A DNA stretch of 64,000 bases from Balanoglossus misakiensis (lineage: Eukaryota > Animalia > Hemichordata). A program made the position numbers and the translations under genes. The stretch lies in the NCBI GenBank assembly GCA_040954595.2, contig CM082596.2, forward strand, positions 2,536,999-2,600,998, written 5' to 3'. Below the pieces are notes generated by a model. The model did no database searches and was not told the DNA's origin. It was given only the letters and a program-made list of their open reading frames with translations. Below, piece after piece: positions 10,961 through 42,600 of this stretch. Each line of letters opens with the position of its first letter. Position 1 is the stretch's first letter.

Positions 10961-11582
10961 TGCCACTGCATGCACTGCACTGCCTTGCGGACAATCGACG
11001 TCATCTTTGACCGGACACAGTTCGTGATTTTTTTTTTGCGGTTAACTTCTGGTCCGATGCGGACAATTATAACAGGAACTGAGAGGAACTTTGTTAGTTG
11101 GATCTTCAGAAACAAAGTGTAAGTAGTGGACTTTAATATACGCCTACATAATAAGAACAACCCTTAGTCAATATGCGGAATACGTTTTGACAAATAATTT
11201 CAGCTCGTGACAACAGCGAAGTTCAGCAGCAGATTTCGGTATCCACTGCTTCGTGTGTCGCTGTGGACGGCTGGGACACCAGGCCAAAACCACCGGAATA
11301 CCCACTTCGCCCATCTTGGAGAAATCGCGTATGCACAAACGTGAAGACATTTTCAGCTTTATCCAGGGCAGCAACTGGAGATGCAGAATCGTGGAATATA
11401 TCGCATGTCTCAACATAGGGTCAATAATGTGAACTTTGACCTGGGATAGCATTGTCTTACTAAATTCTATCGGGAGGCGTGTTGCCCTGTCTGTACTCCC
11501 TTGAAGTGACATCCTTCATCACCTCACGCGAGAGAGAGTCTGTCACAATCATTTATATCGGTGCTAAGGAGTTTTTTGCAAA

Positions 11583-14500
11583 ATGAGGCCAGTGGGAACT
11601 TTTCTGTTGGTTTTCATATCTGTGCTGAGTACGCGGGGAGTTCAAACAAGGGAGGATTTTTGGTACGGTTACTGGGGCGACGCTAGCCCGGAAAATGACG
11701 AAAATGACTTCGATGCCCAGTTGGCCGCTCTGGAAGAGAACGGCGGCACAATGTACGACGACATGGATAACTTTTTCCCGTTTGATGACGAGACGTCGCG
11801 GCAGAATTTCGACGATTTGGAGCTGGAATTTGGCAGACAGCTGCAGCTCAACGAGGACGAGCTGTTGGCAGAGCTGCAGAAACAAAAACAAGACACGGAC
11901 AGGCGGTTTGACATCAACGAGTCTACGGACATCGGGAACGAAGTCGGCGGGGGAAGTTCCAGGTACGAAAACCGGGAACTGGGAAATGTCGTAGAAGACA
12001 ACGTATTAAATCCTGTGAACGAGGATCCTGGCGCTGGGGATTCCAAATTCGAAATCAGTGACGAGCAGCAAAGTTCACCTGGGGCGAGTAAACACTTCCC
12101 GCAAAGACTTTTTGATTCCCAGGTGGTATCAAGTGATAGTCCAGGCACTGAAGTAACGACAGTGATTGGTGGAAATTACACCAGCGGCGTTGCGTCATCA
12201 CTATCATCACCGCCATCTTCTTCTTCACAATCATCATCAACAGAATTGTCATCACATTTGAACCAAGAAAAACAACATGTAATCTTGGACGTCACTGGAA
12301 CGGGGTCAATGCCAGCGTCTCGTGTCAACATCGAAACAAGCAGTAAACATCCGGAGACTAGTATCGGACATGTCGGAAAGACGGCCGAAGTCACTCAGAC
12401 GGTTACACCCAACATTGTACGGCCATCTTGGGAAGCTGGCATCACTCGAACCAGTTCCCCCACTCCTCCTTTGACCAAAGTGGTCCTCATCAGCAGTAGT
12501 AGTGGTAGCAGCGCCGGACTTGACTCGAGCTCGATGTTAACGTCTTCATCGGATTTGAACCAAATTTCTGCGGCATCTGCAAGTGGTGTTTTTAATCCTT
12601 CTGTCATCAACGTGACCCGTACGCTTTCACCCCTGACTGCAGCGCAGTCACTCAAAGCCAGACTCAAAGATACCACGTCACCAAGTCAAAGAACTGACGC
12701 CTTCCTTCACGCGACGTCGCCACCAGCCGTATTGGAAATTCTGAGAAATTCAACACCAGGGAAAAGCGTGCATGTTTTGGACACACTCGTCGCCGACAGT
12801 TCGGAAACTCTGCCGGATACTCCGACAAGTGTTGATTTTGAGAAATGGAGCGAAATAAATCGTACGAGTTCTACTTTAGAGAACTGCACGACTTCAACAA
12901 CAGAAGAGGTGTCGAGATTTGCAACCAAGGTAGACTTAATTTCGATGTCACCATCTTCAAGCAAAGCAAATATAAATTTTACGGAAATGAAAAAGTCAAA
13001 ACACTTTCTGGAACCCTCGCCTGTTTGGCCAGAAAGATTTCAAGAAGAAACTCTCAGTTTACAACTGTCAACGCTGAACTCTGTGATAGATGGCTTGGAT
13101 GACGTCACCACAAGCCGTGGTGACGTCGACTGGCCTGGGGTTGTGCTGCAGACGTCATCAAGGACATTCTCACCTGGAATTTTAGAAAGCCACGAGACTA
13201 GTGAAAATGAAAACAAAGTCGCGAGGTCTCGCCATGAAGGTGAAAGTTGGATTAGGCCTACATCAACTTATCGGCCGGAGTTAGTCACATCTTCTGGTGT
13301 GCCAGAAGATTCCTTTGAAGATGCCTATCGCGATAGCAGTAAAAGTGTGAACTTAAAAGTCACTAGCACGGTCGTCAGTCGGGAATCGTCTGGTTTAACC
13401 ACGTCATTGCGAACAGAAGGCAAAGTTTTGGCCAAAATATCGCCATCGCCGACACAGACAAGGGCAGACATCAGCACCAGTAGTACGACTGGTGGCCAAC
13501 CGACCAAACAGACTGCTGTCCTGACGAGAGAATCGTCACCAATTGCTCGCAGTAGATTTGAAATATTACCGACCGAAGTGACTCGGATCCAAAGTAGTTT
13601 CTACTTTCCGACGGAATCGCTCTCCATGGAAACACGGCAGAAGCCAACACCTGTTGATTCTACCTCTGCCAGCCTCCTTTTGGATCATGACGTAATACCA
13701 CCATCTCCCAAAACCGGACTGGCAGGTGCAATCTTGCAGTCGCTTTACACCCGTCGGATGAAGAACTTGTCGCGATCTGGGCTTTTGGAAGCACCGAGCC
13801 TGTCCACCACACAGCTGTCAGTTGTCGAAACGATAACCAACCCGGTAACAAGATTGGCATCTTCTGAGCCTTCCGTAACCCTTGGCAACGATTTGATGCA
13901 TAGCACCAGAGCCGATACAAGCGGCGATAACAAAGGACATGTCACCTTTATAAGCGATGAAAACAAGCAAACATCAACAAACCTTGGTTATTCACTATAC
14001 ACAATCCATCCCGATCACCTGATCAGACCGACATCACAGCGGCTTCAACAACCGGAAACATCATCAACGTTATCTCGAGACGACATCGACCAGGTCAATT
14101 TGCAAACCGCTAAAGTCACAGCACCCAGTGTACAAAGCAAAGCGTCGACGCCGACAGTGCCATCCTTCGCAATTAAATCATCAGAGTCTCCACCGCTAAC
14201 CATTACGCTGTCTGATCCATCAACTTCATCCCAACACAGAGCTACTGAAACACACGCAGTCGATAAATCAGTCGCGTTGTCTTCGATTGACCCCGCGAAA
14301 ACCGGGCAACTTGCGACGCGTGCATCAATCATAGCTGATATGCCACTTGCAGAACAGAGTGCAAGCGTTCCGGCTACAGTTACCATGACAACAGCATCGG
14401 CGCGAGAAGATAATGACAAGATAACGGACAGTTCAGATCTGGAGGGGACCCAGACTGTGGATGTGGTAACCGTGATACCTATTGACTCAGACGCTTCTGT

Positions 14501-17205
14501 CCTCATCGAACCGAAGGCTTCCTTGACCCCGACCCCTGATCGTGACGCTGCCGTGAAAAGCCCATCATCACCATCGCTCCAAATCACAGATGATATTGAA
14601 AAGCATCCAACACTGACCGGCTTAGCAACGGAAGATGCGACCAAACGCGTGACCCCGTCTGACGGGATGACCGTGGGGTCAACAGCTCACAAATCATCCA
14701 GTATCGCAGACACGGTGAGAAGTCCGACAATAACACACACAGCACCGACCCCAACAGCCAGGGAACCCGCATCTCAAGCCAATAGGACGTTCACAGCCAA
14801 TGCAACAGTCACTGACCACGTGGAAGTTACGCAAAAGCAAGAAGTTGCCAGGCCAATCGGTCATTCGCTTACGTCACCACAACCCAGTAACTTCTCCGGG
14901 CCAATGAACAGCACAGTGACATCAGATTGGCCAAAACATCCACACAACACATCTTTGCAACCACAACCACTTTCACAAAGGCCGAGTGGTAACCGCACGG
15001 GTTTGCCGCAACCAAAAACACTACCACTAAATTTGATCGTATCAAATAAAACTACAGATGCACTGAACACGATAACGCCGACAGTAAACGCGAGCGAACA
15101 GGCCAAAACAGCGTCCAATACCACGAACGCCAGAAAAATATCCCTGACACACATGATGAAAACGATTGCTAGCAGTAAACCAACTTCAGGGTCAGGTTCA
15201 GACTCTGTCGAAAAGGTCGACGAACCGACCGTAGCAACCACTGAGGACACGCTCGACTTTGACCGAGGCCAGGGTCACCACGTGGCCTGTCCTCCGAAAG
15301 CGGCGGCAGAATACTGCGTCAACGGAGGCACCTGTCTACGCATACCACACGTGGGAGTGCTGGCTTGTGAGTAAGTATTACATAATGTTCATTTTAGTTA
15401 CCATTTTCCATATATAAGTATGTGCTTACCTCTTTGCATTCTTGCACCGAGGCCTGTTAAAGTATACAGTCTGTAGCGATAGCGAGCACGTACAAGGCTC
15501 AAAAATAGTCTCAATCGTTCCGAGTAGGCAGCTACACTAAAGCCATGATTAAAGATATGATAGCACTTTTAAAAACTATTTTCGAAATCTGTATGCTACT
15601 GCGGGACATGAATATTGAGATGCCGTATCATGTTTTTCACATGCTATGTACGATGATACAATATCGAAATCGCTCGTGCGTGCTGAGTGGGCTAATGAAT
15701 TGATATTTGATCCAAGACTGTACATAAGTGACAAAAACAACTGCTTGGGTGTTTTAGTGGAATTTACAAGTATGGGGTGGTCAAGCTCGGGACCAGAGAA
15801 CTTATCCTACAGATCTCTCTATCTCACCTCTTCCCAGGTGCGCCCCGGGATACCAAGGTATCCGTTGCAAGGATTGGCTACCGGACAAGTATCGTATCGA
15901 TCTCACGTCAGACGAGATAATCGATACTGCTTTGGGATTCGCTGTCGCCGTGACGTCGCTGGTTCCCATTGGCGGTGTGACTACGTACGCGTATTACAGT
16001 TCGTAAGTATATGATTTTTTTCTGCGTCTTGCAGGGGAAAACTAATTTTAGTCCGACTTGAAATACTAGTGATGGTGGTTAGCCAGTGTTCACATTCTGG
16101 TGTCGTAATTCAAGAAGAGACCCGTTGATAGGAATTTTAATAATATTCCTGGCTTGCGGCGGCTTTTGTTAATAATCACCGGGATATGAAACACGATATA
16201 ATTGAGAGAGAGAGAGAGAGGGGGGGGGGGAGAGAGATTTGTAAGGTTACAGTGTGAAGACAGGGGCCGTGATCTTAGGCCTTGAGGAGTTATATGAAGT
16301 TGAACTTAGGCGACTCCCGCGTAGTAAATGATAAATGGAACTGAACTAGGATATACGACAGATTTAAACATTTTGAGAAAACGCTATTAACGTGAGCGAT
16401 CAACGTGTGTTTCATATCATCGTCGGATTTGTTCGAATACCACGCAACAAGTATGTGTATCGGCCATCTCCCCGAGCAAATTTTAATCAGAGTTTAAAAT
16501 TTGTGTCATTCCACTCGTATCGGCTGTACACTCTACTGACAGATCGAAGCAAGACAACCTCTCTCAGCTATGCTATTTTCATTTGCTCCGTGTCAGAAGG
16601 TTGACAAGGACTAGCAGATAATTTTCTCAGTGTTGTGTTACAACGTGTTTGATGCAATTTAGTTCATTGGATCCGACAGCGCTGCGTGTACACTTTTCTT
16701 ATTTCCAGAATCGACGTCTTAATTGAAACGTATATTGCTTGCACTCGTTTGTAGAAATGCCGACCTTCTTAAGATATGTGTGCTACTGTAATAGTCGCCG
16801 AGAAAAAAAAATCTCGCAAAACTGCTGTCTGTTTGTTCGCGTCTTTTTTACAAGAGGGACTATGGTTCATGCACGTTGTGGTGACGTTTCGAGCCCACAC
16901 CAATTCCACGTCATTGGTCCGACAAACACGCATCAAATGGCATGACAATGCTCTTCGGGAAAAAAATCACAGTTCTGTTTACTGTACCCTGACATTCGCG
17001 GGGAATGTTTACATCTATCCCGTCGCCTTAAATGACCTATGACGATGCCTATCTAAAAGTTTGTTGTTGGCTGTTGATGAATGTGCAGTGGTTGACACGT
17101 CTTTTTTCCCCATTTGACTTTTTCAGGAACAATGTTCCCGCAAGTGACGAAATATCAGATCAGGTGAACGCTTTTAACAAGTATGATCAAGATTTCGACG
17201 AGTAA
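11583..17205 (+). CDS. Type I membrane protein (~1343 aa): signal peptide, acidic N-terminal region, ~1100-aa S/T/P mucin-like stalk, single EGF domain, TM, short acidic tail; putative EGFR/ErbB ligand precursor
   Basis: Exons 11583-15370 (GA|gtaagt), 15838-16002 (cag|G...TC|gtaagt) and 17127-17205 (tttcag|, TAA) total 4032 nt in frame. EGF: CPPKAAAEYCVNGGTCLRIPHVGVLACE|CAPGYQGIRC. TM: ALGFAVAVTSLVPIGGVTTYAYY. The last exon is less certain than the first two. Confidence 0.85.
16204..16237. repeat. (GA)n / poly-G microsatellite
   Basis: gagagagagagagagag followed by a G run and agagaga, in the second coding intron of the EGF gene. Confidence 0.9.
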
Positions 17206-18333: not shown

Positions 18334-21300
18334 TTAGATTTCTGCAATAATGTAAGCATCAGCCAAACTGCCTTTCCTCATGTCGTGGAGTTGATCACCT
18401 CGTGGAGGCAAGGCCAGTAGGGCGTTGGCTGTCTTCAGACTTAAGAGACGACTGCTTCTCTGGCTTCCGGTACTGGTGGCACTGGGTACCGGATCATCCG
18501 GGGACCACTCCAGAACCACCCGGTGGAATTCCGGCCTGTAGTCTAATCTCACGTCGGATGATATCTGGGAATGAGAATTCAGAGTTTGTTTAAATCTAAA
18601 ACTGAAAAGTGTCAATCATAGTGGAGGGGGTTGGTATGAGTTCTCTTTAGCTGTATGTAAACTTGAATTTGTGTGATTATCATACACAGAGAAAATTCTT
18701 TTCGCACCTTGGCCTTGACCTTGGTGAGCTGAGGTTTTGGATGACCCATCATTTTCCTCAGGGAGGGTACGACAAACAGATTGCAGCATACAACACCAGA
18801 CACAGGATTGCCTGCAAAAATAAACAGTAGAATTAGAAAAATATATATGATTGAAAGCCAATATAAAAACAAGAGCATGGTTGACAGCAAAACTGCAGTC
18901 TTAAAATATTTTCATATTTCTGACTGATATGATGATTTTACTTACCTGGAAGGGCAAAGAACAGTTTCTTTTGTCCATTATATTCCAGAGTAGCAAATGT
19001 GGTGGGTTTCCTACAAGACACAAGAAAATGCAAATCACAGATTTATACATTTCTGACAATAATGTCAGAGGGAAACTAATTCGGCGATTTGCCAAAAATC
19101 AACTCACCCTGGCTTGAGAAAGACTCTCCCAAATGCAACAGTGGCACCCAACTTGACTTGCAGAACATGTTTGAGGTAGTCCTTCTCACCCATGGACACA
19201 CCACCAGTTGTGATGACCACATCAGCTTTCTCCAGGGCTCCCTTCATGGTCTCTTCCAGTGATTCTACACTGTAAGGGATAGATTCATTTACAGTGAAAC
19301 TAATCAATCAATCAATCGATCAATCTATCAGTAGTTAATTCTCCTATCAAACACCCTCTCTAAGAACTCAGCAGACACATTGTGTGGGTTCTCACCTGTC
19401 TTTGGCAATGCCTGCATCCACTGTGGTGTACCTGTGTTGTTTCATGAGTGCCAACAGAGTTGTTCGGTTGCTGTCATAAATGTGGCCCTCCTTCAAAGTT
19501 TCTTCTGGCTCGGCCAACTGTAATATAACAAGGAAATCTATTATTGGTATTGACCTCTGCATTGGTGCATGATCTTGGACCCTGTAAAATCTGGCAGATA
19601 TAGGGGCTTTAAACTTTCACACTTGCCTCATTTCCTGTTGACATGACAGCCACGATTGGCTTGGAATGAACCTTGACCTTTGTGACACCAACCGAAGCCA
19701 ATAACCCGAGTTCTGAGGGTCCAAGCTTGTTTCCCTGTCTGAGAATGGTTTCTCCCTGCTTGATGTCCACTCCAGTAGGTCTAGAAGTTCAAGCAAATTT
19801 TTAATGACAAGAAAACTCTTTATTGTCTTAAACTAATACCATGACATAGCTGAATATTCACCAAGGAATCATATGCCTTCTTACCTGATATCCTGACCAA
19901 CTTTTGGTTCTTTCAAAATGCGAACTTCCAGTTCAGTGCATCCCTACATGAAGGTCAGAAAGATGACATCACGGTGAAATAAGAGTACATCAAGAAATCT
20001 GATAGGTTCCTTGTCTTTGTCTGTAACCAGAGCAGTGTGTCAGTAAACAGGCGCTGTTTTACTCTGAAGTATACCTGCTCTCATACTCACATCATCTGCA
20101 TCCTTGATCAGTTGAGTGTCTTCAACCTGCACGATGGCATCAGCCCCAGGGGGCAAGGGAGCCCCAGTTGTGATTCTCATAATCTGACCTGATGTAATCT
20201 TTCTGGTTGGCATATCCCCAGCAGTGCTGTCACTAACAACTTGTCGCACACCTGCACCATCAGAAGCTAAGCCAATGAGAAATTCCAGTTAGAAGCTAAT
20301 CCAAAGAGATGACAATTAACTAACATTAACTAACAGGCATGAATGACTACTTAGGTAAATATACTTGATCAAGAACAGTTTTGCTATTGAGTGTACAACC
20401 AGGTGAGGTGCCCCATGCACTGACCAATCACGGGCGTAATTCTGAAATACTAACCAATCACAGCATAGCCATCTTTGACAGAGGCTGGAAATGGTGGCAC
20501 AGACACTTCAGCAAGCACATCACTGGCCAAGATATAACCCAGAGCACCTGTCAAAAAAAATCATTTCAAAATACATTATACAGTCAAGCCTTTCAACATG
20601 ATGGGCTGTGTGAAGTTTGTCCTGTGCCACATGAGAATGTCCTCTCATATTAAGGGCATAGCCACCCATGATCTCACAGGGTCTCATGCAGTATAGTAAA
20701 TGGTCTATTCTCAGTGTTCAAAATAATGGTGTGTTTCCTCCTCTTACCCTTGGTATCCCTAGTTTCTGCTCCCAGTACTGGTGTGTTCTCCATCACTCTC
20801 TGCAAAGCCTCTTCAAACGTGATCAGTGGATATGGCGAATGTCTTGGACGTCTTGCCACCTTTTCGACATCGTGGCTGTGATGGCCTGTAAAACAATGTA
20901 TTTGTTTCAGTTCTAGAGTTGATCTGAATGACTTCAGTGGATCAGTTGAAGACTGATTAACTTCTTGAAGAACATTCTCCTCTGTACATGTGAAATGAAT
21001 GCATCATAAACTGATTATTTTTACACACCACCTGCATATTCTTGCTGTTCAGGGTCACCGTGATGATGGTGATCATCTCTGCCTCGACCTCTGCGATGCC
21101 GGGGACTGTCTCTGTCTTCATTATGACCTCGTTGGTTTCTATGGCGTTCACTCTTCACTCTATGATGATGGTGGTCATCTTTTCCATCATGACCTCTGGG
21201 GTCGTCACCATGGGAATGGCGGCGACGCTGATGATGATGGCGATGGTCCTACAATAGACCAGTGATCTTTATTGTAAACTAGCTATGCCAACTTTAAAGC

Positions 21301-24300
21301 ATTTTCACTTGATTTTCAAAACAGATTAGAACCATGTTGATCATTTCAGTTGATAACGTGTTGAGTAGACATGCATGAGCACACTGTCATTTTTTCCAAC
21401 CCAAATATTCAGCAATATTGTACTGCTGACCTCACACTCATTCAATGATCAAACACAGAGTTTATAATGGCTAGACATATTTTGGTTTATTTCTATCAAC
21501 AGTACAGTATGTTTCACAAAATATGGATGCTTTGTGTGTCCCATTGTTGATACAAATTTAAGAGATACCAACATGGCAGTAGGTGTATCTCATCTACTCA
21601 AAATAATGTACTCTTTTTTCCTTCATTATGTTTTCTTTTTTGACATAAACAGGAAATTCAAATGATACAATGAACTATATTATATAATGTCTGGAGGTAA
21701 AAAGGAGTAAAGGTAAAATCTAGGGTATAAATCCAGGTACTCAGTTTGTGCATATCTATGCATGCTTATTGTAAAATCTAAAAATATTTTTCTTAAAAAG
21801 AAGCTGCTTTTTGAAAACACATTACAAATAAGTTATAGGTTTCAGCTTTAAGATATCCAACAAGTCAGAATTGGATATCACATAATCTGGTCAATAAAGA
21901 TGTTGCCGTTTGCATTTCAGTTCAAGCCTCATCATCTGCCTCTGAAGACGAACTTGACCCCACGGGACATTCAATGCTCTCCAGGGCTTGCATCGCTGTT
22001 CTTGGTCTTGACCTTTTTCTCCTTTGACTCTCACCTCTTCTACCGCGCCCGCCTTTATCTGTTGCCGTAGTGACACTGGAATTATCGCCCTCTGTCTTCA
22101 TGGCTTTGGGTACCACCTTCTGCGGTTGTTTAACTTTCCTGTGTTTGGGCTTCTTGGTTGCTTTTGATCCTTTCTTGGCCGGTGAGCTGGCGTTTCCGGC
22201 ATTGGACGAATTGCTCTCGTGGGGGCTACCTCCTGCCCCAGTCTGGCTATCTTGCTTCTGGGTCTGACCTTGTGCGTCCTTCACGCTGTAGCTAACGTCC
22301 CTTCTCCTCTTCCTCATCCCGGAGATGAAGAAAGAGACCCTCTGCTTGGAGATGGATTTCACCTTCTCCACGGATGCCGGGTGCGACTTCAACATTCCGT
22401 AAATGTCCTTGGGAGACTGGCGGTCACAGCGCGACATAATCACGTCTCTCACATCCTGGTCAAGACGCAGACTTTCCTTGGGAGGAGGGTTCCATTGGAC
22501 TGGGCTGTCTTCAGGAATGTGACTGCCTGTAATCTTGACTCTCCAGTGGTCTAGGTCACTCAAGAAAATCTTTAGTGCAATTAGAAGTGAACAGTTGTGT
22601 CGATCTTGTTTGTGGGCAACTCCTTTACAACCTAAAAGAAATACAAAATACAGTAAATATCATGTACAGTTATTCACAAACAAAAAAGATAATATCACAT
22701 AAATTATTTCATTGTTGTTGTGTTTTCAAGTCAAATTTCAGTATTTTCAGTGCAAGGGTGGAATGTACCATATTTACTGACCTGGCATACACTTTCCATA
22801 GCCCCCACAACCTCTCTTACAGTTGCCATGTCCGGGACACCACAGATACCATGCCACGACATACTGATCACGTTGCTCATTGCTCTGTATTTTGCGAACA
22901 CGCTTCAGTCCTTCCTCTGTGGCTACAAATCGGTCGTCTACGCGGTTGCGTTCGTGAACATGCTGCCCTCGCTGCCAGCTCCCTTTGTCGATGGCACCGT
23001 CGTCTCTCCTCATCGTCACGAGGTTTCGCTTGACATCGCGTTTTCCGCGGTTGAGCGTCATGTCCTTGAAGAGGTCGTGAGTCTTGAGGAAATTTTTGAG
23101 TGGCTGTCCCACTGGTACCTCCGTGTAGTCCTTGCACGACTTCCATGAAATTCTCTCGCTTTTGCCGGATGACACTGTGCTTTCTTTCTTCTTCTGTTTC
23201 TTGCTGCGTTTTCTGTCTGTTTCAACGTCAGGTTCGTCAAATTCAAACACATCCACGGCGCTTGCTGTCTGCTGATTGGCCACCCCTTGTTGAGTCGCAT
23301 CATGCGTGTCCTCTCTATCTTCGTTCTCCACACTTGTGTTCGGATTGTCGTCACTTCTTGTGTTAGGGAAGTCGGGATCTTCCGTAATGGACACTCGGAT
23401 CACATCTTCCTCCGGCACAATCCAGTAATGCTTTCCTGTTAAATTTTCAACTTGTTGGATGCCTGCGCCGTCGAAACTCTTCGTATTGGGAATTCTTTCT
23501 GATTGTTCAGAGGACGGGCCCAAACAGGGATTTGACGTTTCTGAATGCTGTGGTGAAAACTCATCACCGTTTGCGGGGTGAATTTGAACCGGGTAGGCTG
23601 ACTTTATAGGCAGCGGTGTAGCAGATTCACTCTGTCTTGAAGGACAAACATGTCTTGAAACGACTGGCTGATTAAGAATGGTTATGTCTGCTTCGCGACT
23701 GTCACAGAATTCTGTCACCTCATCTGCTGTGTTTCTTGTATCTGATTCTGTGTCTTCGTCAGCTGGGGGATTATCTGTGGTCTGATCGACAATGGGTGAC
23801 AGTCAGCGTATTCAAGCAGTGAATGAACATCTTGAATGATGCATCAGGGGAGTGTAAGATATTGTAGAGTTTAGTTACCTGTTGGACTTCAACGTGAGTT
23901 GTTTCCACCTTCTTCTTATTGTCACGTAACAGATGAATTGCGTGGGGCAAGGCTGGTAAGATGATCTCAAAACATTCCTGTAGTGACAGTGAGAAACATT
24001 TATGAAGTATGTGTATCAATATTAAGGACACATCAACTTTCCCTAATATTTTGGTATAAAGTGGAATTCCAAATGCCCCTTGAGTCTCTATTCGTGTACA
24101 CGTTATTTGATGACACACACATACCTGTGATCCTTTTGCACTTCCGGGCAGATTGACGATGAGAGTCTTCCCACGAATCCCACACACTGGTCTGTGGAGA
24201 TAAACAACAGAAAATACATTGATTTCTATGGTAAAGATGGATTCAAAACCGGCCCATTGCATTCATATACACGTTTATTGAACACAGACAAAACATAGAG

Positions 24301-25802
24301 TAGCGCCTGTTTACCTTGACAACATTGCCATCTGTGTGATTCTCAATGATCCTATGAGCATAGCCGTTGCCATACCTGGGCATTCTTTCTCTATCACTGC
24401 CTTGGTTGCCTAAAAGATAACAGATCCCATGATATAGATTTAACTACTGATGTTCACTTGAAAATTTCTGATTGCATGTTCTGGGACATGTACAGATAAT
24501 AATAAAACATGTCCTTGAGTGCCTAAAAGTTACCACCAGAAGAAACAGGTTCGGTGAGATAGTAAATGTGATGAACTGTCCTCACCTCAGGAGTAACATC
24601 TCTGGGAGCAAAGCCAGTTCCACCAATTGTGAGTATCAGATCAGTCTGCAGATTGTCACTCCAGTCGATCAATGTCTCCTTGATTTTTGTGGTGTCATCA
24701 GGAACAATGGCTTGAACTGCAACTACTGCATTGAGGCTGGAAATCAACAAAAAGTAGCGATTATGGAAATTAACTAGGGAATTATAAATTAAAACTCAGC
24801 TTGCCTAATGTATTGTATTTACAAAAAATATAGTAACTCTTTCTCCACCATGATTTGGTCCAACTCCATTGTTCTCGATGGGGTGAAAAAAGGAAACTAC
24901 TTTACCTCTTCTCATGTTTCACCAACTTGCACAGATTGGATCCACTTTTGTCTTCAGCTTGACCCAAAGAGCACCTGTCGCTGGCTGTTGCCAGGCAACA
25001 AAGATAGAGATGCAAAGCTCAGTTGATTCAGTTATGAAGAACTGCATGCACCTATTTTATTTGTGTACATCCATACAATCTCCTGCTCAGTTGATGATGA
25101 TAGCCACAGCACATCCATATCGTGCTACAAACAACATCATCAACCGAGCAGAGATATTATCTTAAAATTATGGACTTATATTTCTATCGCCTCCCCCCCC
25201 CCCCAAAAAAGTTTTTTTTTCCTCCTCATGATCACACAAAAAATTGTGTCAAGAACTTGTAGACGAAAGTTACAAAAAACATCAAAAAGTTTTATATTTC
25301 AACCACACCTTTGTCACATTCCTTACATGTCAAAACAAACACATTGTATATATTAATAAATAACAATAAAATATGCAAATGACGAGCACTGTAAACTAAT
25401 GGTGCCAAATACAGTTTTAACAATAAACAAAATAGTTGTCACTAGGTATGTAGTATGTATGCCAATCGGGGCCTTACACCACTGTTAACAAATCGATGAT
25501 GCATACATGACTAGTATTTACAGTTTGCTCAGCTCGATCGCGAATGAACACGTGAAATAGACACGGGCGGAGTTAGGCGAAGCCATCATCGTCGCGTTGT
25601 TATGCTGTAACATACAGTTAGGCATTAGCTGTGTAATTAACATGTCGCCAAGAGTTCAAATAATCGGGGTGAAACAGATGTATGACCGTAAGATAACGCA
25701 ATCGCATTCGGGATTATAATATTGACTGGACGGCGGGTCAACCTTACCGGTTAATATGCCAATTCTCATTCGATCGTCGTCTACGCTCTGATCGTGCGCC
25801 AT
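18334..25802 (-). CDS. GPHN: Gephyrin (molybdenum cofactor biosynthesis; MogA-like G domain plus MoeA-like E domain), 17 exons, 688 aa
   Basis: Exons (high-low): 25802-25748, 24984-24906, 24736-24586, 24409-24315, 24191-24125, 23977-23879, 21248-21032, 20885-20748, 20547-20455, 20266-20091, 19943-19885, 19780-19627, 19517-19396, 19269-19108, 19010-18946, 18811-18708, 18564-18334 (2067 nt, in frame). Motifs: [97 protein letters not shown] at 18281-18276. Confidence 0.96.
19302..19330. repeat. (ATCA)n tetranucleotide microsatellite, imperfect
   Basis: aatcaatcaatcaatcgatcaatctatca in a gephyrin intron. Confidence 0.7.
21922..23781 (-). CDS. Two alternative terminal exons inside gephyrin intron 6 encoding 569 aa: acidic linker, Cys/His-rich putative zinc-binding domain, basic tail
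   Basis: Exon A 23781-22782 (ctgac branch point, atcag| acceptor in phase 0, CCA G|gtcagt donor) and exon B 22631-21922 (tttcttttag| acceptor in phase 1, TGA) join ORFs 22774-23718 and 21922-22563 into one frame. AATAAA at 21491-21486. Confidence 0.8.
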
Positions 25803-25951
25803 ATTGTTTTCTGGCCCTGGTCAGTTGCAGGAGCGCCCTCATTGTCAGACCCGGCTAGCTGACATTGATATGTACATTGATATGTACATGTGAGTTTGAT
25901 CAGGTCATTCGTTTATTTCTGAGACGAGTGAGAGTCCCAGGGCTTGTAAGT
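25803..25951. promoter_or_regulatory. Candidate bidirectional promoter, gephyrin / ZIP transporter
   Basis: Gephyrin ATG at 25802 (minus). A plus-strand donor gtaagt at 25946 can pair with the acceptor tttcag| at 26920 ahead of the ZIP ATG. Contains a 12-bp tandem duplication (acattgatatgt)x2 at 25862-25885. Confidence 0.55.
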
Positions 25952-26964
25952 AATCGCTCATATCACCAGAGAAGAGTAGAAAGGAAAGGTATGTATGGAC
26001 GATCATCCTGAACCTTGCGATTAATCGTTATGTTTGTGTACGAACAAGGGAACCCGGGGGCGAAATTTGAGGGAACCGTGGCTCGAAGTTTTCACGTGTC
26101 TACCGCTGGGGTTGCTGCAGTTTTTTTAGCATCACAACTCCCCTTGACGATTTTTGTTGTAAACACAAAAATAGTCAGGGGGAGTTGTGGGGCTACAAAA
26201 CTGCAGCAACCGCTGGGGTAGGCTTGATGTCCAAGATTCAGCCCAATACCAGGGGTTTTGTTTGCCATTTTTGGGATTGGCTGTTACACCCCCCGGTTGC
26301 CATTAGTGCAACCACTCAAGTTCACGTGGTGTCAACACGTGAAACTGCACTGGTCAATGACCTTCTCCATATTGCGCAAATGGAATGTACTGAATATCGA
26401 TTTTTTCCATAGTGTAGTTGAAGAAACAGAGTGGTTGTATAATTTATTGTCTGAGTCAGTTGATAAGAAACACACATTGTATAAATTGTTGCAAGTCTCA
26501 CAAAGACAATTTGACTGGAGGAAAGTGAATGGGTTGTAATTCTAAGGGTGTCATCTTTTGTGTAGTCCCTTTTGTACATTTCTAATTCAGTTTGCAAATT
26601 TGCAAAATTAAATGTGTTTTAAAAACCACCCATAATATGAAACTGGAACTAGTCTTGTGTCAAAAGCACCAGACTGTCATGTGTCCATAACATCATTTCC
26701 TCATTTGGCAATGTGATGTTGATCGCTTCAACACACTTCTGTCATGCAATTTCTGCCCTGGAGTACTTCCTTGTTTCACTTTTGCACATGATTTGAGGGA
26801 TTTCCAATGATCATTGATTGATACAATGCAAGTGTAATTGGCAGATGCGTCAGTTGTACTAGCTGGGCAAGTAAAAGAAGCAGGATAAAACAAGTGCATA
26901 TTTTTGTCTTTTGATTTCAGGAAAGTTTACTTGGCTTCTGGATATATCAAGTTATTAGAGGAAA

Positions 26965-27981
26965 ATGGATGTGGTGACAGCAAAAGTAATAGCACTGTTT
27001 GTGTTGTTGATAGAAGTTCTAATATTTGGTTTTATACCTCTGGCATTTGTTAATGCTGTGAAGTCCCAGGATCAGTTTAGTTTGACCAGACGGATCATCA
27101 GCTGGCTGAGTTGTTTTGCCGGAGGCGTCTTCTTTGCCACCAGTATGCTCCACATGCTTCCTGAAGTCCGGGAATTGATCGAGCACGGCCTGGAAGGGAT
27201 GGGAATCCATTCCCACTTTGCCCTGGCGGAGTTTGTGACTGCTATTGGCTTTTTCGTGATCCTGGTCACTGAGACTCTGGCGATGTTTTGCCACAAGCAA
27301 AGCGAAACGCCGGCTCCGGCAAAGTCGGGTGGAAATCATCGGATAGAGGATGCTGCCACCTATGGCGCTGCTTCAGAGCGTGTCTCACTTTTTGAGGAAG
27401 CAGAAGGGAATCCAAAGGATGCAGCGGAAGGAGACTCGCCATCGCCCGGTCAATCGCAGGAATGCGACTTGGTGGTAGAAGAGACCAATGAGCATGTACA
27501 CTTTGACACTGGCGGTTCAGCCCTCCGATCGATCATGTTCCTGCTGGCACTCTCCCTCCACTCTGTCTTCGAGGGAATGGCTGTGGGACTGCAGCGCGAC
27601 GTTGGCGGCACCTTCGAGCTGTTCCTGGCCATCGCTCTCCACAAAGGAATCGTGGCCTTCAGCTTTTCCCTGAACCTCATCCAGAGCAACCTCAGCAAAG
27701 CTGGAATGATCGGCTCCGTCATCACCTTTGCCATCATGTCACCCATTGGCGTAGCCATCGGTATTCTCGTCAGCTCCACCACGGCCACCGGCCCGGAAGC
27801 GGAATTCGCCAACGGAATGCTGCAGGGCCTGGCTACTGGCACCTTCCTCTATGTAACATTCTTTGAAATTCTTCCGCACGAACTGAATGTGAAACGGGAC
27901 GAACTTCTCAAAGTTTTATTCATAATTTTCGGCTTTGGCTTGATGACGGTTATTGACATAGCGGTGCCACACAGCCATTGA
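26965..27981 (+). CDS. ZIP (SLC39) subfamily II zinc transporter, ZIP1/ZIP2/ZIP3-like, 338 aa, intronless CDS
   Basis: CFAGGVFFATSMLHMLPE; TM4 LALSLHSVFEGMAVG; TM5 AIALHKG; MSPIG; LQGLATGTFLYVTFFEIL. About 8 hydrophobic segments with a variable cytosolic loop. Confidence 0.95.
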   Translation: MDVVTAKVIALFVLLIEVLIFGFIPLAFVNAVKSQDQFSLTRRIISWLSCFAGGVFFATSMLHMLPEVRELIEHGLEGMGIHSHFALAEFVTAIGFFVILVTETLAMFCHKQSETPAPAKSGGNHRIEDAATYGAASERVSLFEEAEGNPKDAAEGDSPSPGQSQECDLVVEETNEHVHFDTGGSALRSIMFLLALSLHSVFEGMAVGLQRDVGGTFELFLAIALHKGIVAFSFSLNLIQSNLSKAGMIGSVITFAIMSPIGVAIGILVSSTTATGPEAEFANGMLQGLATGTFLYVTFFEILPHELNVKRDELLKVLFIIFGFGLMTVIDIAVPHSH

Positions 27982-28495: not shown

Positions 28496-30486
28496 TCAGT
28501 CATCTAACACACTATCTAACCAGTCTTCCAATTCATCTGCTGTTGGTTCATTGATTGTCTTCTCTGGTACTTTGCCTTGCGTTGATTCTGCAGAGAGATC
28601 AAACCACAGAAACACATATTCACAGTCCCAAACACTGCATTTGAAATATAAAGTTTATCATGAGAATCAAAAATATGCATTTTTGCTTGGCTTTATAAGT
28701 ACCTGTATTATCCTGACCTTTTGTTTCTGTTGAAATCTGTTGTTCTTGGTCTTCAGGGGGAGATGGCTGTACATCTGAAAAAAATAAATCAGTATTCCCA
28801 ACATTTGTAATCAAGATGGCTTCCTTTATCTTTCAGTGATAGCACAGGTGCATTTTCCTCACATTTATCTCTACTTTCTATGGTATCTTTGGTTGGCTTT
28901 GCACAGGTGCCTAAGCCTTTAGTAACCAGTGACAAAACATGTACTGATCTTGTCGAGGCAGTCTTGCATGTTTACCTGTTTGTTGGCTGGACGATTGCAC
29001 TGACTGTGGCGTATCCAATGACAACAAGAATTCAAGTTCATCTTCGTCAGATTCCACATCTTTAGTTGCAATTTCTTTCACATGCACAGCTGCATCAGAC
29101 TTGACTGCCCCACTGATCTCCGCTTTCAACTGTTCTTTCTGTCTCTCATCGAGTTCGGCACTTTTAGGCATTGTCGGCAATTTTTCAGAGTCCTTTCTAA
29201 AACTGTATGTAACGTCTCTTAATTGATCTCTCTGAGGCACACTTTCTTTTATTTTTTCACTGATTTCTCTGGTTGTGGAGGCGGGTAGCTGTGGTGGACT
29301 GGTCTTGGATGCAGGCAACTCGCCCTGAAGCGTGGTTTGGTCAAATTTTGGCTCCTCTTCAACAAGTTGATTGCCCACCTGTAGAAAGTTTGCCACAAAT
29401 GAACTTGAGTAACACCCAATGTCACTATATGCAGATGATAGAAATGAAGTTTCAAGTCAATTTTGTCACTTGATGAGTGACACACACACAGGCACTGCTC
29501 TACATACCTGGAATATCTCTGGTTCGATCTGAAGTCTAGTGTGCATGGGAAGTTGCATCAGTGCCACGCTGAGTGCATTGATGTCAATAGACATCACATC
29601 ACCAGTCAACTGTCAAACAGAAATGTAATATCAGTCGATCATCTCAGAACATGGGTCAATACTTTCAACCACAGTTGTGTCTATCAGGAAACTTTGCTAG
29701 GAACTCTCCACCAAGTTATCAAAGTCGTGTCTTACCTGAAACCTTTCTGTGTCTTCCTCCCAGTCTTTCTCGTCATGGAGGCGGAACTGAGAAGATGCTG
29801 CTCCTGTAGAAGAGAAGTGAACAAGTGTTGGAAAATAGAAATATGCAGAATACTATATGAACACTAATTCCACCATTCAGATAACTTACCTGCTTGAATC
29901 AGTAAGGTATTGAAATCTGCTCCTCTAACTTCTGGCTTGTCTTCATCATCTGGCAGTTCCTGGTATCTATCCCAATTGCTTTCTACTTTCCTCCTGGAAA
30001 AGGCCTGGGAAATCAATGAATTCATCCAAATTGATTTTGCTTCTTAAATAATTTTAATAACAGTACAGACAGACAGACAGACAGACAGACAGAAAGAATA
30101 CTTATAATGTACATGTACTATTATGGTGATCAGATCGACATTATTGGTCACGTGAGGGCGCACTGTTTACGTTTTTGCCACTGCACTTTCATTGTCAAAA
30201 TCACTGAAAATCCACCTTCCAGGAAAGCCAGATTGCAGCTTTTTCAGTTTTCTACAATAGAAAATATACGTACAGAGTGTGTTGTGGTTTCTGCGTTGTC
30301 TTTGCTTGAGTTAAAACCAGGCTTTGCATTCTCTACTTTCAATGCCTGCTCATGACTTCCCACCAATCTCGGTTGGCTGGTGTCTTTCCTGCTTATTTCA
30401 CGATGGTCACTCTTTGCTGTTGACCTTTTCCCATCTCCACCCTTGTGTGGACGATGGTGCGATTTCTTGTGTCGATCTTTCCTCAT
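28496..30486 (-). CDS. AVEN: Cell death regulator Aven (~349 aa)
   Basis: Exons 30486-30274, 30004-29890, 29803-29736, 29609-29508, 29378-28976, 28774-28718, 28587-28496 (1050 nt, in frame). Motifs: FSRRKVESNWDRY, RGADFNTLL..AG..SQFRL..EKDWE, ALMQLPMHTRL, DELEFLLSL, C-terminal ELEDWLDSVL. A 48-nt exon 28910-28863 and an alternative donor at 28703 are possible. Confidence 0.9.
30067..30092. repeat. (AGAC)n microsatellite
   Basis: agacagacagacagacagacagacag in AVEN intron 1. Confidence 0.9.
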
Positions 30487-39600: not shown

Positions 39601-42600
39601 TCACGTCTTGCTAAAAATCTGCAACGGCTTGTGCGTACACTCAATCCAAAGCATTGACCTGATAACGTCATTTTATCACTCTTCTGGAACAATCGACATA
39701 TTCACACATTTTTTTGTCAGGTTGATGGATTGTCAACTTTCTCAAGTGGCTTAGTGACTGAAATAAACTGAAGTTTTCTCCGCTTGGATGAGTGATGTCT
39801 CAGTCAAGTCTTGAATGAGTAATGCATCAATCAGTCAAGTCTGCGAAATTTGTTTTCAAATCTCGGCTCTTCGCGTAGTTCTGTAGCTGATCCTGAAATT
39901 TGTTTTCTCAGCAAGAATCGATGTGATCAGACATTAAACGTCTTGTCAAACTCAGTAGGACGGTTCTACAGCTAATGCATATATGATAGATGAAAATCAC
40001 TCTGTTGAGAATGTGAATGTATTATAACAAAATGGCCGTCTGTAAAATGTGTGAGTGAAATTCTAAAGTCAGAGCACATGACTGTTTTATTGCCATGTTA
40101 TTACTATTTGTTGTACTCATGATGCAGGATAAGTAGAAAGTGAAACAGACCTTTTCAAATAAAAGAACTCTATGAATTATGGACTGTTCAGTATAATCCC
40201 TGGTGTATCATTGAACAGTCTGGCTAGAGGAACCCAGGTAATTTTGAGGACAATGATTTACAACCCTTTGGAGCGCCATTCAAATAGAAGAGAAAATTTT
40301 AATTCCTTCCTATATTTGGTGAATTAAAAAAAATGAGGTTCCTTCCACAAACGAGATGTACCAATTCAAATTTTTAGTTCCATCGAGACAAAAGACCTAC
40401 ATGTATAAAACTTCTGTCTACATTGGGGAAGCATTGCAGCTCTCTTGAAAAGTGTATCACGGATTTCCTTTTCTCTATTTTCTGTGTTCAGACTCTTAAA
40501 GGTATCAGAGGAGCAATTGAAACACTTAAAATGGTAAATTGTCGCACCATAAATACCATCCCAGTGGGTGTCATTCCAATTAATTGTCAGGCAAGCCATT
40601 TACTGGAGAAGTTCCTTTTTCGTGTTTTATCAGTATCGTCCTATAAAAAGTAATTGTTTCGTTTTCTGCATATAGTGTCATTTTGGCAGATTAATATTAT
40701 CATATTATCATATCTGAAGCTGCTGTGTTTGACTAATTCCATGGAAGAGAATATATCTAGTTTGTCAACTGTTTATCGTTACCGTAGATGTGGAATGTCT
40801 TCACAAAGGTGACAGGAAACTGGTGACAGTTTTTGAAATCAATTACTGAATTTTTTTTTCCAAAAGAAACTATCACTGAAACCTTGTAGTTGAATGATTG
40901 AATGTCACAATATGGCCATTACGAGCCTTGTAGTTGCGAAAGTCACCCCCCTACTTCGAGGTCAAGTACACATTAGAGCACTTTATACAGATAAATTTGA
41001 TTCCATAGTTGATGTCTATCTGTCACTCTGGCAGCAGAGAGCCCTGACTGGTACGAGTAACAGGTCCCGTCGTCGCGGTGATGGAGCAGCAAGGGCTGCT
41101 GAATTATTCATTCTGCGGTTATACTCTGAATGATTTATCAGTTTAACAGCGACTGTTGATATTCAAAGGTTATTGATTGTATCTTGGCTGTGATTTAACG
41201 GTTTGCCGAGAGACAGTGCGTGGATCAATAATTAAGAAATGGCCGTTGATAGTTCTATGAAGGCTACCTTTAGCAGCGAGAATCATTGTTCCCTACGAGA
41301 TGCCTCAGTACCTTTATACTGGTATTTTTTGCCATAATTTAACATTTTACTTCACTTCATAATCAAAATTGGTGAGATTTGTCATTTCCTTGTAAATTTT
41401 TCACGTTAGTTTGCACTACGTGCCAAACAATGCTCAGTCAAACAAAAATACCATTGAAGTCACTGATGATGCTTTTTCGCAGATTCCTTTCATATAATTA
41501 AGAAAAACAGAGCATCAAATAATCATTTCCTTCATACGTCACCAGCACGACCAGAATATTGTGTAAATGAAATTAAGTGGGATAATTGAAGCTCCTGTTT
41601 TCATGAGAAATGAACTCTGCTGGAAAAAGACAATGATCAATGACTGGAAACTCATATTAGGCGTTGTGCCATAAAATTTGAATTCACCCCCAGGAACTAG
41701 AATTTTCAAAAAGGACAGCACAACAAAAATCTACACAAAACAAAAATGATGAAACACATATTTATTGTCTTTATATAAGCCACTGTCACCAATATGGCGA
41801 GATGGTAGAGCTGTAGTCATACACAAAATAATCATTTGCAAAATTTAGTATCTCTGTCATATATAAAGGAAGGCAAAAATTCTGGCTCAAATAAGTTTGC
41901 TGTCACAATTCTTCACTGTTATGTAGTTCTGGTTCAAACTGAAAAAAGCAAGAAATAACCGGCTGACAAAAGAGTTGAGACTGACCTTAAAAACAAGTAC
42001 TGTCAGAATATCCAAAGTCCACAATAAATTTCAATGCACTGTAACGTATTCTTGAATCATAGTGTCTGGAATAGAAAATGAATGTCAGTCATATCTCCTA
42101 CTCCAGTTTTGTGTCCCCACTTATCTCTTGATCCATATCTGTATTGAACCGTTTGTGCTCGTGCACAGTGCACAGTGACAGGCTTGTTCGATGCTTTGAG
42201 CCCTTTCCTCTGGAAGTTCATTGGTTTCTTTGTCTATGGCACTACGTGAATCGTAAGGCAGACAGTCGACGCTATATCGCGAGTTTTCTTCCTCTTCTGT
42301 GCACTCTGGGAGAATGTCCGGCAGTTTTCTCTTGCTGAATGTGTTATAATGTTTTCCATTGATCATATATTTGTGTCCGTTGTGGTCGGGTAAATTCTCA
42401 CTTCTGGCTGAGGTCGTTGAACCTTTACGGGCTATCCGCCTCTCGCTTTCCTCGTACATGAACGCACTCGTCGACTGGAGTGAGGATTTCCTGCTACTCT
42501 TTCGGATGGAACTGGCGCGGCTTGGCGACGAGGTACTGCCTTTCAAATTACAGTGGAACAAATCGATGAAAGCCCGTCTGAAATATTTATTGAGGAGTCC

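Follow-up and report, generated by a model that had tools for sequence, protein, structure and literature searches.

A zinc module of probable MULE transposase origin and a predicted alternative ending of gephyrin in a hemichordate and other invertebrates

The gephyrin gene of the hemichordate Balanoglossus misakiensis, on the minus strand of a 64,000-nucleotide stretch of contig CM082596.2 (GenBank assembly GCA_040954595.2, positions 2,536,999 to 2,600,998; the whole stretch is called the window below), runs from the exons for its G domain to two further exons, A and B, then to a histidine-rich linker exon and to the exons for its E domain. Exons A and B encode a zinc module followed by a helix-turn-helix (HTH) domain, and it is probable that the N-terminus of a MULE transposase was captured here and is spliced as the end of a nuclear, DNA-binding isoform. 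Gephyrin is a moonlighting protein, a molybdenum-cofactor enzyme and also a synaptic scaffold, and the isoform is probably a third, nuclear product of it, conserved in six invertebrate phyla.

Conservation and transposase origin of the module

The peptide that the initial annotation read across the splice junction is present as quoted, and its count of 6 Cys and 5 His in 57 amino acids is confirmed between the first Cys at 22839 and the last His at 22519. The conserved module begins well before that, near 23121 and some 95 amino acids ahead of the first Cys, and is about 225 amino acids long, roughly residues 400-630 of the spliced protein. It is not a chance reading, since 21 of 39 and 12 of 23 candidates from word-seeded searches matched at E<=1e-3, as did 230 proteins in a profile search of 1.84 billion representatives. 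The named carriers are hemichordates, amphioxus, four classes of echinoderms, nine mollusc genera, the annelid Owenia and the brachiopod Lingula, and so six animal phyla; vertebrates, arthropods, nematodes and cnidarians are absent from the named matches among the 150 listed of the 230, and most of those listed are nameless. The closest homologue is in Ptychodera flava, and a tree groups the window sequence with those of Ptychodera (100/95) and Saccoglossus (100/99). Identity between the window and six species is 54-68% in the zinc module, 57-74% in the G domain, 33-70% in the HTH domain and 6-18% in the linker. Judged at the protein level, by identity across phyla and not by dN/dS, the zinc module is under purifying selection, and its conservation matches that of the G domain. 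Pfam gave nothing credible for the two exons or for 21 alignment rows (best E 0.004, to unrelated families), a sequence-profile search of the PDB with the module returned five chance rows with E>3, none of 32 pattern matches in viral contigs is a relative, and a homologue search limited to proteins of 2553-5000 amino acids found no relative. A second, near-identical S. purpuratus module model without G (P0045) has a separate locus name and is either a local duplication or a haplotype.

The initial annotation proposed a transposase source of the MULE kind, and this has been borne out to the point where such an origin is, from sequence comparison, almost certain. A profile of gephyrin-linked modules aligns with a nine-sequence profile of transposase N-termini over 199 columns that take in part of the HTH domain (HHalign probability 99.8, E 2e-28), and it also matches proteins with the module at their N-terminus. 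One of these relatives, P0169, passes the Pfam MULE cut-off (34.8 bits against 27.6) and has the motif CIFH. Another, the 836-amino-acid P0145, has D, D, CxxH, E and SWIM-like motifs behind its module (motifs at 326-330, 416-420 and 539-544), with CWFH 19 amino acids after the second Asp; a further relative, P0139, is from the fungus Diversispora. Marks of MULEs, as set out in passages of PMC5499845, are long inverted repeats (>100 bp), a DDE triad and (C/D)xxH 15-45 amino acids past the second Asp, and donor-family relatives show a DDE triad behind the zinc domain, (C/D)xxH and inverted repeats of more than 100 bp. A metagenome scan gave 35 loci with transposase relatives, and inverted repeats of 105-422 nt with 93-99% identity flank the transposase at 4 (L003, L007, L008 and L015) of the 17 that are at least 2.3 kb, the class to which this count applies, most contigs being about element-sized or shorter. 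At L007 (1-2353) the 105-nt repeats enclose a partial transposase, as in an internally deleted element, and at L003 (1-4039) the first transposase codons fall within the 422-nt repeat. To be set against a transposon source is that no target-site duplications of 8-10 bp were found around these four elements, two of which start at a contig end, while L008 has ragged ends and stops in frame.

No DDE core had been seen initially, and that too is upheld. Four transposase queries (tblastn, E<=1) matched only exons A and B in the 64-kb window, and the first-Asp motif of the core is in none of the 31 named gene models, so that what the locus holds is a domesticated piece and not a transposase. In a 51-row tree, from which 15 near-duplicate rows were left out, the 31 gephyrin-linked rows are on one branch (98/99) with the transposase-type rows outside, and this single branch speaks for one capture behind all gephyrin-linked copies. 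A quick tree of the exon-A part places five open reading frames (ORFs) with an N-terminal domain as sister group (97), and four of the five break off at the site of the gephyrin intron. That intron (22781-22632), inside the zinc insert, has a position common across phyla and apparently also in the sister ORFs, and from their break points it may have come with the donor element. There is also a second host-type clade of the module (P0184, P0185, P0162, P0180 and P0183), from Biomphalaria, Octopus and amphioxus, and the Biomphalaria gene model joins its copy to tRNA pseudouridine synthase 3. It is possibly another domestication, but a grouping of its copies from snail, octopus and amphioxus with those of the gephyrin clade was not rejected by an approximately unbiased test (p 0.277), which leaves separate domestication unsupported.

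The predicted isoform, its G domain and alternative gene structures

All six G exons (25802-23879) have GT-AG splice signals, the frame through them is open with the GGTG motif intact, and the last donor (23879) is phase 0; the 5′ end of the gene is CpG-rich (observed/expected 1.31 at 25500-25899). Joined to exons A and B, the G exons give an open frame of 751 amino acids with its own stop. Joined to the His-rich exon they continue in frame into the E domain, skipping A and B, and both joins are in frame because both acceptors are phase 0. This pattern predicts that gephyrin uses exons A and B as alternative last exons. Exon A encodes a poorly conserved linker, an FxF motif, a basic cluster and the first two thirds of the zinc module. 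The 31 named models comprise 22 with G and module and no E, 6 with E as well, 2 (limpets) with a degenerate G and 1 without G; in 28 of them a G domain with NLPG accompanies the module. Motifs next to the stop are shared by the window and Saccoglossus, and by amphioxus, abalone, limpet, Gigantopelta and Lingula, which fits the stop of exon B being the true end. Taken with the gene models, these sequence features make it very probable that the stop-terminated fusion of G and module is a real product. Databases conceal such proteins under the names ‘uncharacterized’ and ‘molybdopterin molybdotransferase’.

GGTG is an active-site motif of the G domain (described in a section of PMC3896444), and while 24 of the 31 G-bearing proteins keep it, 7 have lost both it and the TxSD motif. 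These dead-G proteins retain a G domain and the module, have no E domain and are on two separate branches, one limpet-type (P0056, P0057 and P0196) and one of single ORFs (P0098, P0104, P0106 and P0107). The latter four records lie on contigs of 1.8-3.9 kb and so are retrocopies or assembled transcripts. The dead-G proteins are read here as duplicates that no longer have to share exons with the enzyme. Structure prediction with three copies of one dead G domain gave a trimer score of 0.90 against 0.32 for the best control, with contacts agreeing in at least 92% and a predicted local distance difference test score (pLDDT) of at least 86. Of solved pairs, 20 of 30 attained this mark, and of single chains 1 of 23 (animals 7 of 16), and the present job is unlike that calibration; as G trimers have already been solved, the predictor may be reproducing a known structure. 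The model supports, without showing, a scaffold role, and on balance the G domain seems to be needed as an oligomer rather than as an enzyme. The limpet dead-G copies amount to a natural experiment separating enzyme from scaffold.

Several points weigh against the splicing proposed. The pattern is drawn from splice signals and the gene models of other species, and a module-skipping G-E transcript was retrieved for no species, the searches having been seeded with the module. Six of the 31 named models run through G, module and E in one chain, as would be expected if the module were a cassette in full-length gephyrin and the main product an insertase with a DNA-binding linker, and two phase-1 GT sites in exon B (22268 and 22034) could join the first E exon, which is phase 1 (at 20885), in frame. 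Yet 22 of the 31 models end with the module. Models of both kinds exist for S. purpuratus and B. lanceolatum, and the read-through ones are therefore perhaps products of joining in gene prediction. The tail motif that is conserved with Saccoglossus is past both GT donors, and the dead-G copies do without an E domain, so a cassette is improbable as the main arrangement.

RefSeq labels the G-plus-module models ‘uncharacterized’, and lists for amphioxus an E-only ‘gephyrin-like’ protein (P0039). These two facts also count against a shared gene, and would suit a gephyrin split in two, with G plus module the sole molybdopterin (MPT)-adenylyltransferase, E separate, and G possibly a molybdopterin/ATP sensor on DNA. 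The retention of GGTG in the 24 proteins, and the separate G and E genes of C. elegans reported in part of PMC11489736, point the same way. In the window, however, the G donor and the phase-0 acceptor of the His-rich exon are compatible, and the 673 nt from the exon B stop to that exon contain no CpG-rich stretch and no mini-exon with ATG and donor, and so nothing that looks like a promoter or a start exon. Shared exons are enough to explain an intact G active site, and in two lineages the module persists with a dead G. A split gene is thus a poor prospect. His-rich stretches are at the place of the window's exon (21032-21248) in models from Owenia, a chiton and Diadema and may be a metal-binding linker.

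The CpG observed/expected ratio is about 1.0 at 22700-23499, in exon A, and 0.1-0.3 in most of the gene body; the patch may be due to absence of methylation, to an internal promoter or to Arg codons. An internal promoter would tell against the isoform, as it would be in keeping with exons A and B being a separate nested gene whose link to G is an annotation artefact, and the Saccoglossus model and one Anneissia isoform do have the module without G. Against this are the seven proteins in which a diverged, dead G is joined to the module, in four cases within a single ORF, the in-frame junction and the 28 models with G and NLPG, and a nested gene is very hard to credit. Alternative last exons of gephyrin stay the preferred account of A and B.

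Fold, metal ligands and proposed function

The initial annotation suggested a fold of the WRKY-GCM1 type with a short trailing helical segment, to be checked by structure prediction and Foldseek. The sequences folded were homologues. For the Ptychodera module (21 rows) the model has a sheet and, at its C-terminus, a domain of three helices, with the Cys insert left at pLDDT<50; for the amphioxus zinc module (82 rows) the model is confident (pLDDT 92.6, predicted template modelling score 0.83) and the Cys insert is resolved. When Foldseek's 455 best chains were re-aligned, WRKY or Aft2 took 8 of the 10 top rows (Z 3.1-4.4), the best covering the whole WRKY domain (Z 4.4, root-mean-square deviation 3.4, 73/73 residues). 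In an unbiased search of 48,161 chains they took 4 of the top 6 (Z 3.0-3.7), with an unrelated chain first (Z 3.9) and GCM at rank 27 (Z 2.6). ESM features, for gephyrin-linked and transposase versions alike, point to the GCM, ALS2CR8, FAR1, ZSWIM3_N and AFT clusters (0.77-0.90). As three methods agree, and as the MULE context predicts it, the modelled fold of the zinc module is likely WRKY-GCM1-like. The trailing helices of the initial annotation are there, but they form a separate three-helix HTH domain. This domain matches Myb/GARP, homeodomain and Tc1/mariner HTH structures (best Z 6.7, root-mean-square deviation 2.1, 55 aligned), matches which, at the level of models, name a fold and no family.

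On the other side of the scale are that the models are not of the window's own spliced protein, that neither had a Foldseek match at E<=1e-3, that every structural score is below the tool's noise guide (Z<8), and that the module lacks the HxH pair of WRKY-GCM1 domains, the metal geometry being unreadable from the model. At the end of strand 4, where HxH or HxC is expected, a single invariant His follows strand 146-155, with non-ligand residues next after it in nearly all rows, and the module is for this reason classed as WRKY-GCM1-like and not as a canonical member. Other features are closer to the type: in the model C102 follows strand 94-101 and C134 precedes strand 137-143 (both Cys in 29/29 gephyrin-linked rows), helix 13-21 precedes strand 1, and a strand-4 Trp is in 29/29 gephyrin-linked and 9/21 outside rows. 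The insert between the core Cys has 31 amino acids with Cx3Cx5Cx3C. A further insert, between strands 1 and 2, is unusually long, and basic residues are conserved in the first strands.

The initial annotation counted ligands enough for two zinc ions, and made the proposal depend on their being conserved in homologues. Eight of its eleven residues are kept and would suffice for two zincs. These are all six Cys, with the His of RHN and that of GSH, which occur in every gephyrin-linked row (29/29), in every row of the dead-G clade (5/5) and in 19-21/21 outside rows. The His of PGH, AHK and DHW vary (3/21, 2/21 and 0/21 outside rows), and eleven metal ligands are therefore rejected. In the arrangement proposed here, C1 and C6 with the two conserved His (C497, C529, H527 and H553) would hold a zinc in a WRKY-like sheet, while C2-C5 (C503, C507, C513 and C517) would hold another in the insert, like the Zn-ribbon of GCM. 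The module would be a two-zinc variant of the WRKY-GCM1-like fold, so far unmodelled and with living transposon relatives.

Binding of DNA in the nucleus by the isoform is quite likely. The four clusters resembling nuclear localization signals that had been noted are present (23214-23185, 22323-22300, 22155-22129 and 22023-22006). DNA binding is drawn only from fold and ancestry, and the low Z-scores and the long insert between strands 1 and 2 would also suit a real isoform whose module has been repurposed to bind protein or RNA. That is improbable, given that zinc module and HTH domain are both kept along with the basic residues of the first strands, and that the protein also has several clusters of basic residues and a motif of a kind usual in chromatin proteins.

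The motif in question, an acidic [YF]xF, is some 40-75 amino acids upstream of the module. Among full models with an active or limpet-type G it is in 16 of 24, a count without the four dead-G-clade rows (with them 19/28), three of whose matches are inside the domain. It is in 23 of 55 exon-A ORFs, some from related species, where shuffles led to an expectation of 0.7. Against it, the pattern is short, was written after the first set had been seen and is absent from 8 of the 24 models. It appears to be host-added, since the transposases begin at the module and leave no room for it. CTCF and SGO1 bind cohesin through YxF (PMC10279526, in the portion relevant here), the motif in such CES-binding proteins being conserved within a disordered region as it is here, and by analogy the isoform's motif might do so, though this is doubtful. 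A Sin3-interaction domain in the tail helix is a lead only, the LxxL core given in the relevant part of PMC6168491 being too generic.

The sequence of events proposed is that a MULE N-terminal zinc module and its HTH entered gephyrin downstream of its last G-domain exon, likely before the deuterostome-protostome split, and that exons A and B came to be spliced as alternative last exons of a likely trimeric, nuclear DNA-binding isoform. Sheet and HTH would read DNA, originally the element's own repeat-rich ends, and the G domain would be a trimerization hub with three DNA-binding arms, as BTB is in mod(mdg4) for last exons with FLYWCH. The host-added motif of YxF type and the helix of the tail would bring in partners on chromatin, cohesin being first among the candidates. 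The composite in full, a trimeric chromatin-architecture protein with MULE arms on a MogA-type hub and a CTCF-like YxF engaging cohesin, is unlikely as a whole. If true, splice choice would swap a molybdenum-cofactor insertase for a genome organizer, and trimers that mix the isoform with ordinary gephyrin could link these two roles. The deuterostome-protostome split is more than 550 million years old, and this choice of last exon would then be older than that. The inverted repeats of the transposon relatives, which in L008 and L015 contain sub-repeats, are candidate binding sites, and sea urchin, amphioxus and oyster are suited to direct tests of the isoform.

The gene and its neighbours can be placed as follows (Table 1). 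Gephyrin and a ZIP zinc transporter in a single ORF (26959-27981, plus strand; Pfam Zip, E 4e-63) lie head to head, with about 1.2 kb between the transporter and the gephyrin start codon. By eye, a plus-strand Ser/Thr-rich frame of 1268 codons (11568-15374; no Pfam match) has a start like a signal peptide and ends in the first Cys of an EGF-like repeat, and a minus-strand frame of 460 codons (42124-43503) has the look of a class A GPCR. A minus-strand frame of 181 codons (28911-29456) has an acidic Leu-rich motif that is reminiscent of the Aven protein, a tentative name.

Table 1. Features of the gephyrin locus in the window, in order of transcription
Feature	Position	Strand	Basis
Gephyrin exon 1 (start codon, G domain)	25748..25802	-	GT donor, in frame
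Gephyrin G-domain exons 2-6	24984-24906, 24736-24586, 24409-24315, 24191-24125, 23977-23879	-	GT-AG, tblastn with homologues
Exon A, probably captured, 1000 nt, phase-0 acceptor, phase-1 donor	23781-22782	-	junction matches Ptychodera model
Acidic [YF]xF motif VFEFDEP	23230..23250	-	recurrence in models and ORFs
Basic cluster, resembling a nuclear localization signal	23185..23214	-	sequence
Intron-split module, putatively two-zinc, likely WRKY-GCM1-like, almost certainly MULE transposase-derived	22519..23121	-	alignment, HHalign, model
Conserved Cys ligand codons (predicted)	22839, 22821, 22809, 22791, 22629, 22593	-	alignment
Phase-1 GT-AG intron inside zinc insert, joining ...YGKCMPG to exon B	22781-22632	-	splice signals
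Exon B, probably captured, terminal; rest of zinc module, HTH, basic tail	22631-21922	-	open frame
Conserved His ligand codons (predicted)	22599, 22521	-	alignment
Three-helix HTH domain ending in RKRRR	22300..22470	-	model helices, structural matches
Tail motif, common to Saccoglossus model near its C-terminus	21970..21999	-	sequence comparison
Stop codon TGA of exon B	21924-21922	-	
AATAAA, 430 nt past exon B stop, possible poly(A) signal	21486..21491	-	weak: intron 68% AT
His-rich linker exon of ordinary gephyrin, phase-0 acceptor	21032..21248	-	splice signals, frame
Gephyrin E-domain (MoeA) exons	18346 (approx.)..20885	-	Pfam MoeA_N; tblastn with P0009

Comparison with known systems

The case belongs to a known kind, host-transposase fusion by alternative splicing, and what is new in it is the host domain, the donor, the age and the likely keeping of both isoforms. 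As in such fusion genes, the transposase domain is on exons of its own that are in frame with host exons. KRABINER, SETMAR and CSB-PGBD3, as presented in sections of the survey bioRxiv 10.1101/2020.05.07.082677, share with it capture in an intron, splicing to the host exons upstream of it, a captured part under constraint and birth as an alternative isoform. In contrast to the fusions described in those sections, the host part here is the domain of a metabolic enzyme and not KRAB or SET, and the donor is a MULE (‘Mutator’ has no occurrence in the survey's main text). The parent isoform of gephyrin likely survives, whereas the old fusions of the same sections generally keep the fusion transcript only, and the capture, which likely predates the bilaterian split against about 350 million years for the oldest fusion there, would if true be older than the survey's tetrapod cases. 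Literature searches, with subscription journals outside their scope, found no report of a gephyrin-MULE module, and ‘gephyrin’ does not occur in the main texts of PMC10027918 and of the survey, whose supplements could list it.

Within the WRKY-GCM1 superfamily as treated in portions of Babu et al. 2006 (PMC1702500), the insert family and GCM have the same Cys at strand ends with an insert between, the same last-strand Trp, the same helix before the first strand and the same association with MULEs, and the second zinc site in the insert is GCM-like. The gephyrin module differs in its single His after the last strand in place of HxH or HxC, where a His placed two residues ahead of the second core Cys is likely the fourth ligand. 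Between the core Cys it has Cx3Cx5Cx3C and not the Zn-ribbon of GCM, another long insert is between the first strands, and no Pfam model matches. The FHY3/FAR1, Aft1/Aft2, CaRF (ALS2CR8) and ZSWIM3 proteins likewise have MULE-related zinc DNA-binding domains within host proteins, and are nearest to the module among named ESM clusters (0.84-0.90) and, for Aft2, by structure (Z 3.7), while HMMER detects no sequence match to them. To our knowledge none of these domains is fused to gephyrin.

The insertases gephyrin, Cnx1 and Cinnamon share the trimeric G domain with GGTG, a variable linker and the E domain; their linkers have 11-139 amino acids, and no folded zinc domain figures in the descriptions given in parts of PMC11489736 and PMC3896444. 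For overall design the nearest parallel is Drosophila mod(mdg4), where, again from portions of PMC1702500, an N-terminal oligomerization domain is joined to alternative last exons with a finger of WRKY-GCM1 type. Gephyrin differs from it in having a MogA-type trimer hub that comes from an enzyme, a single module and not many, and an enzyme as its other isoform.

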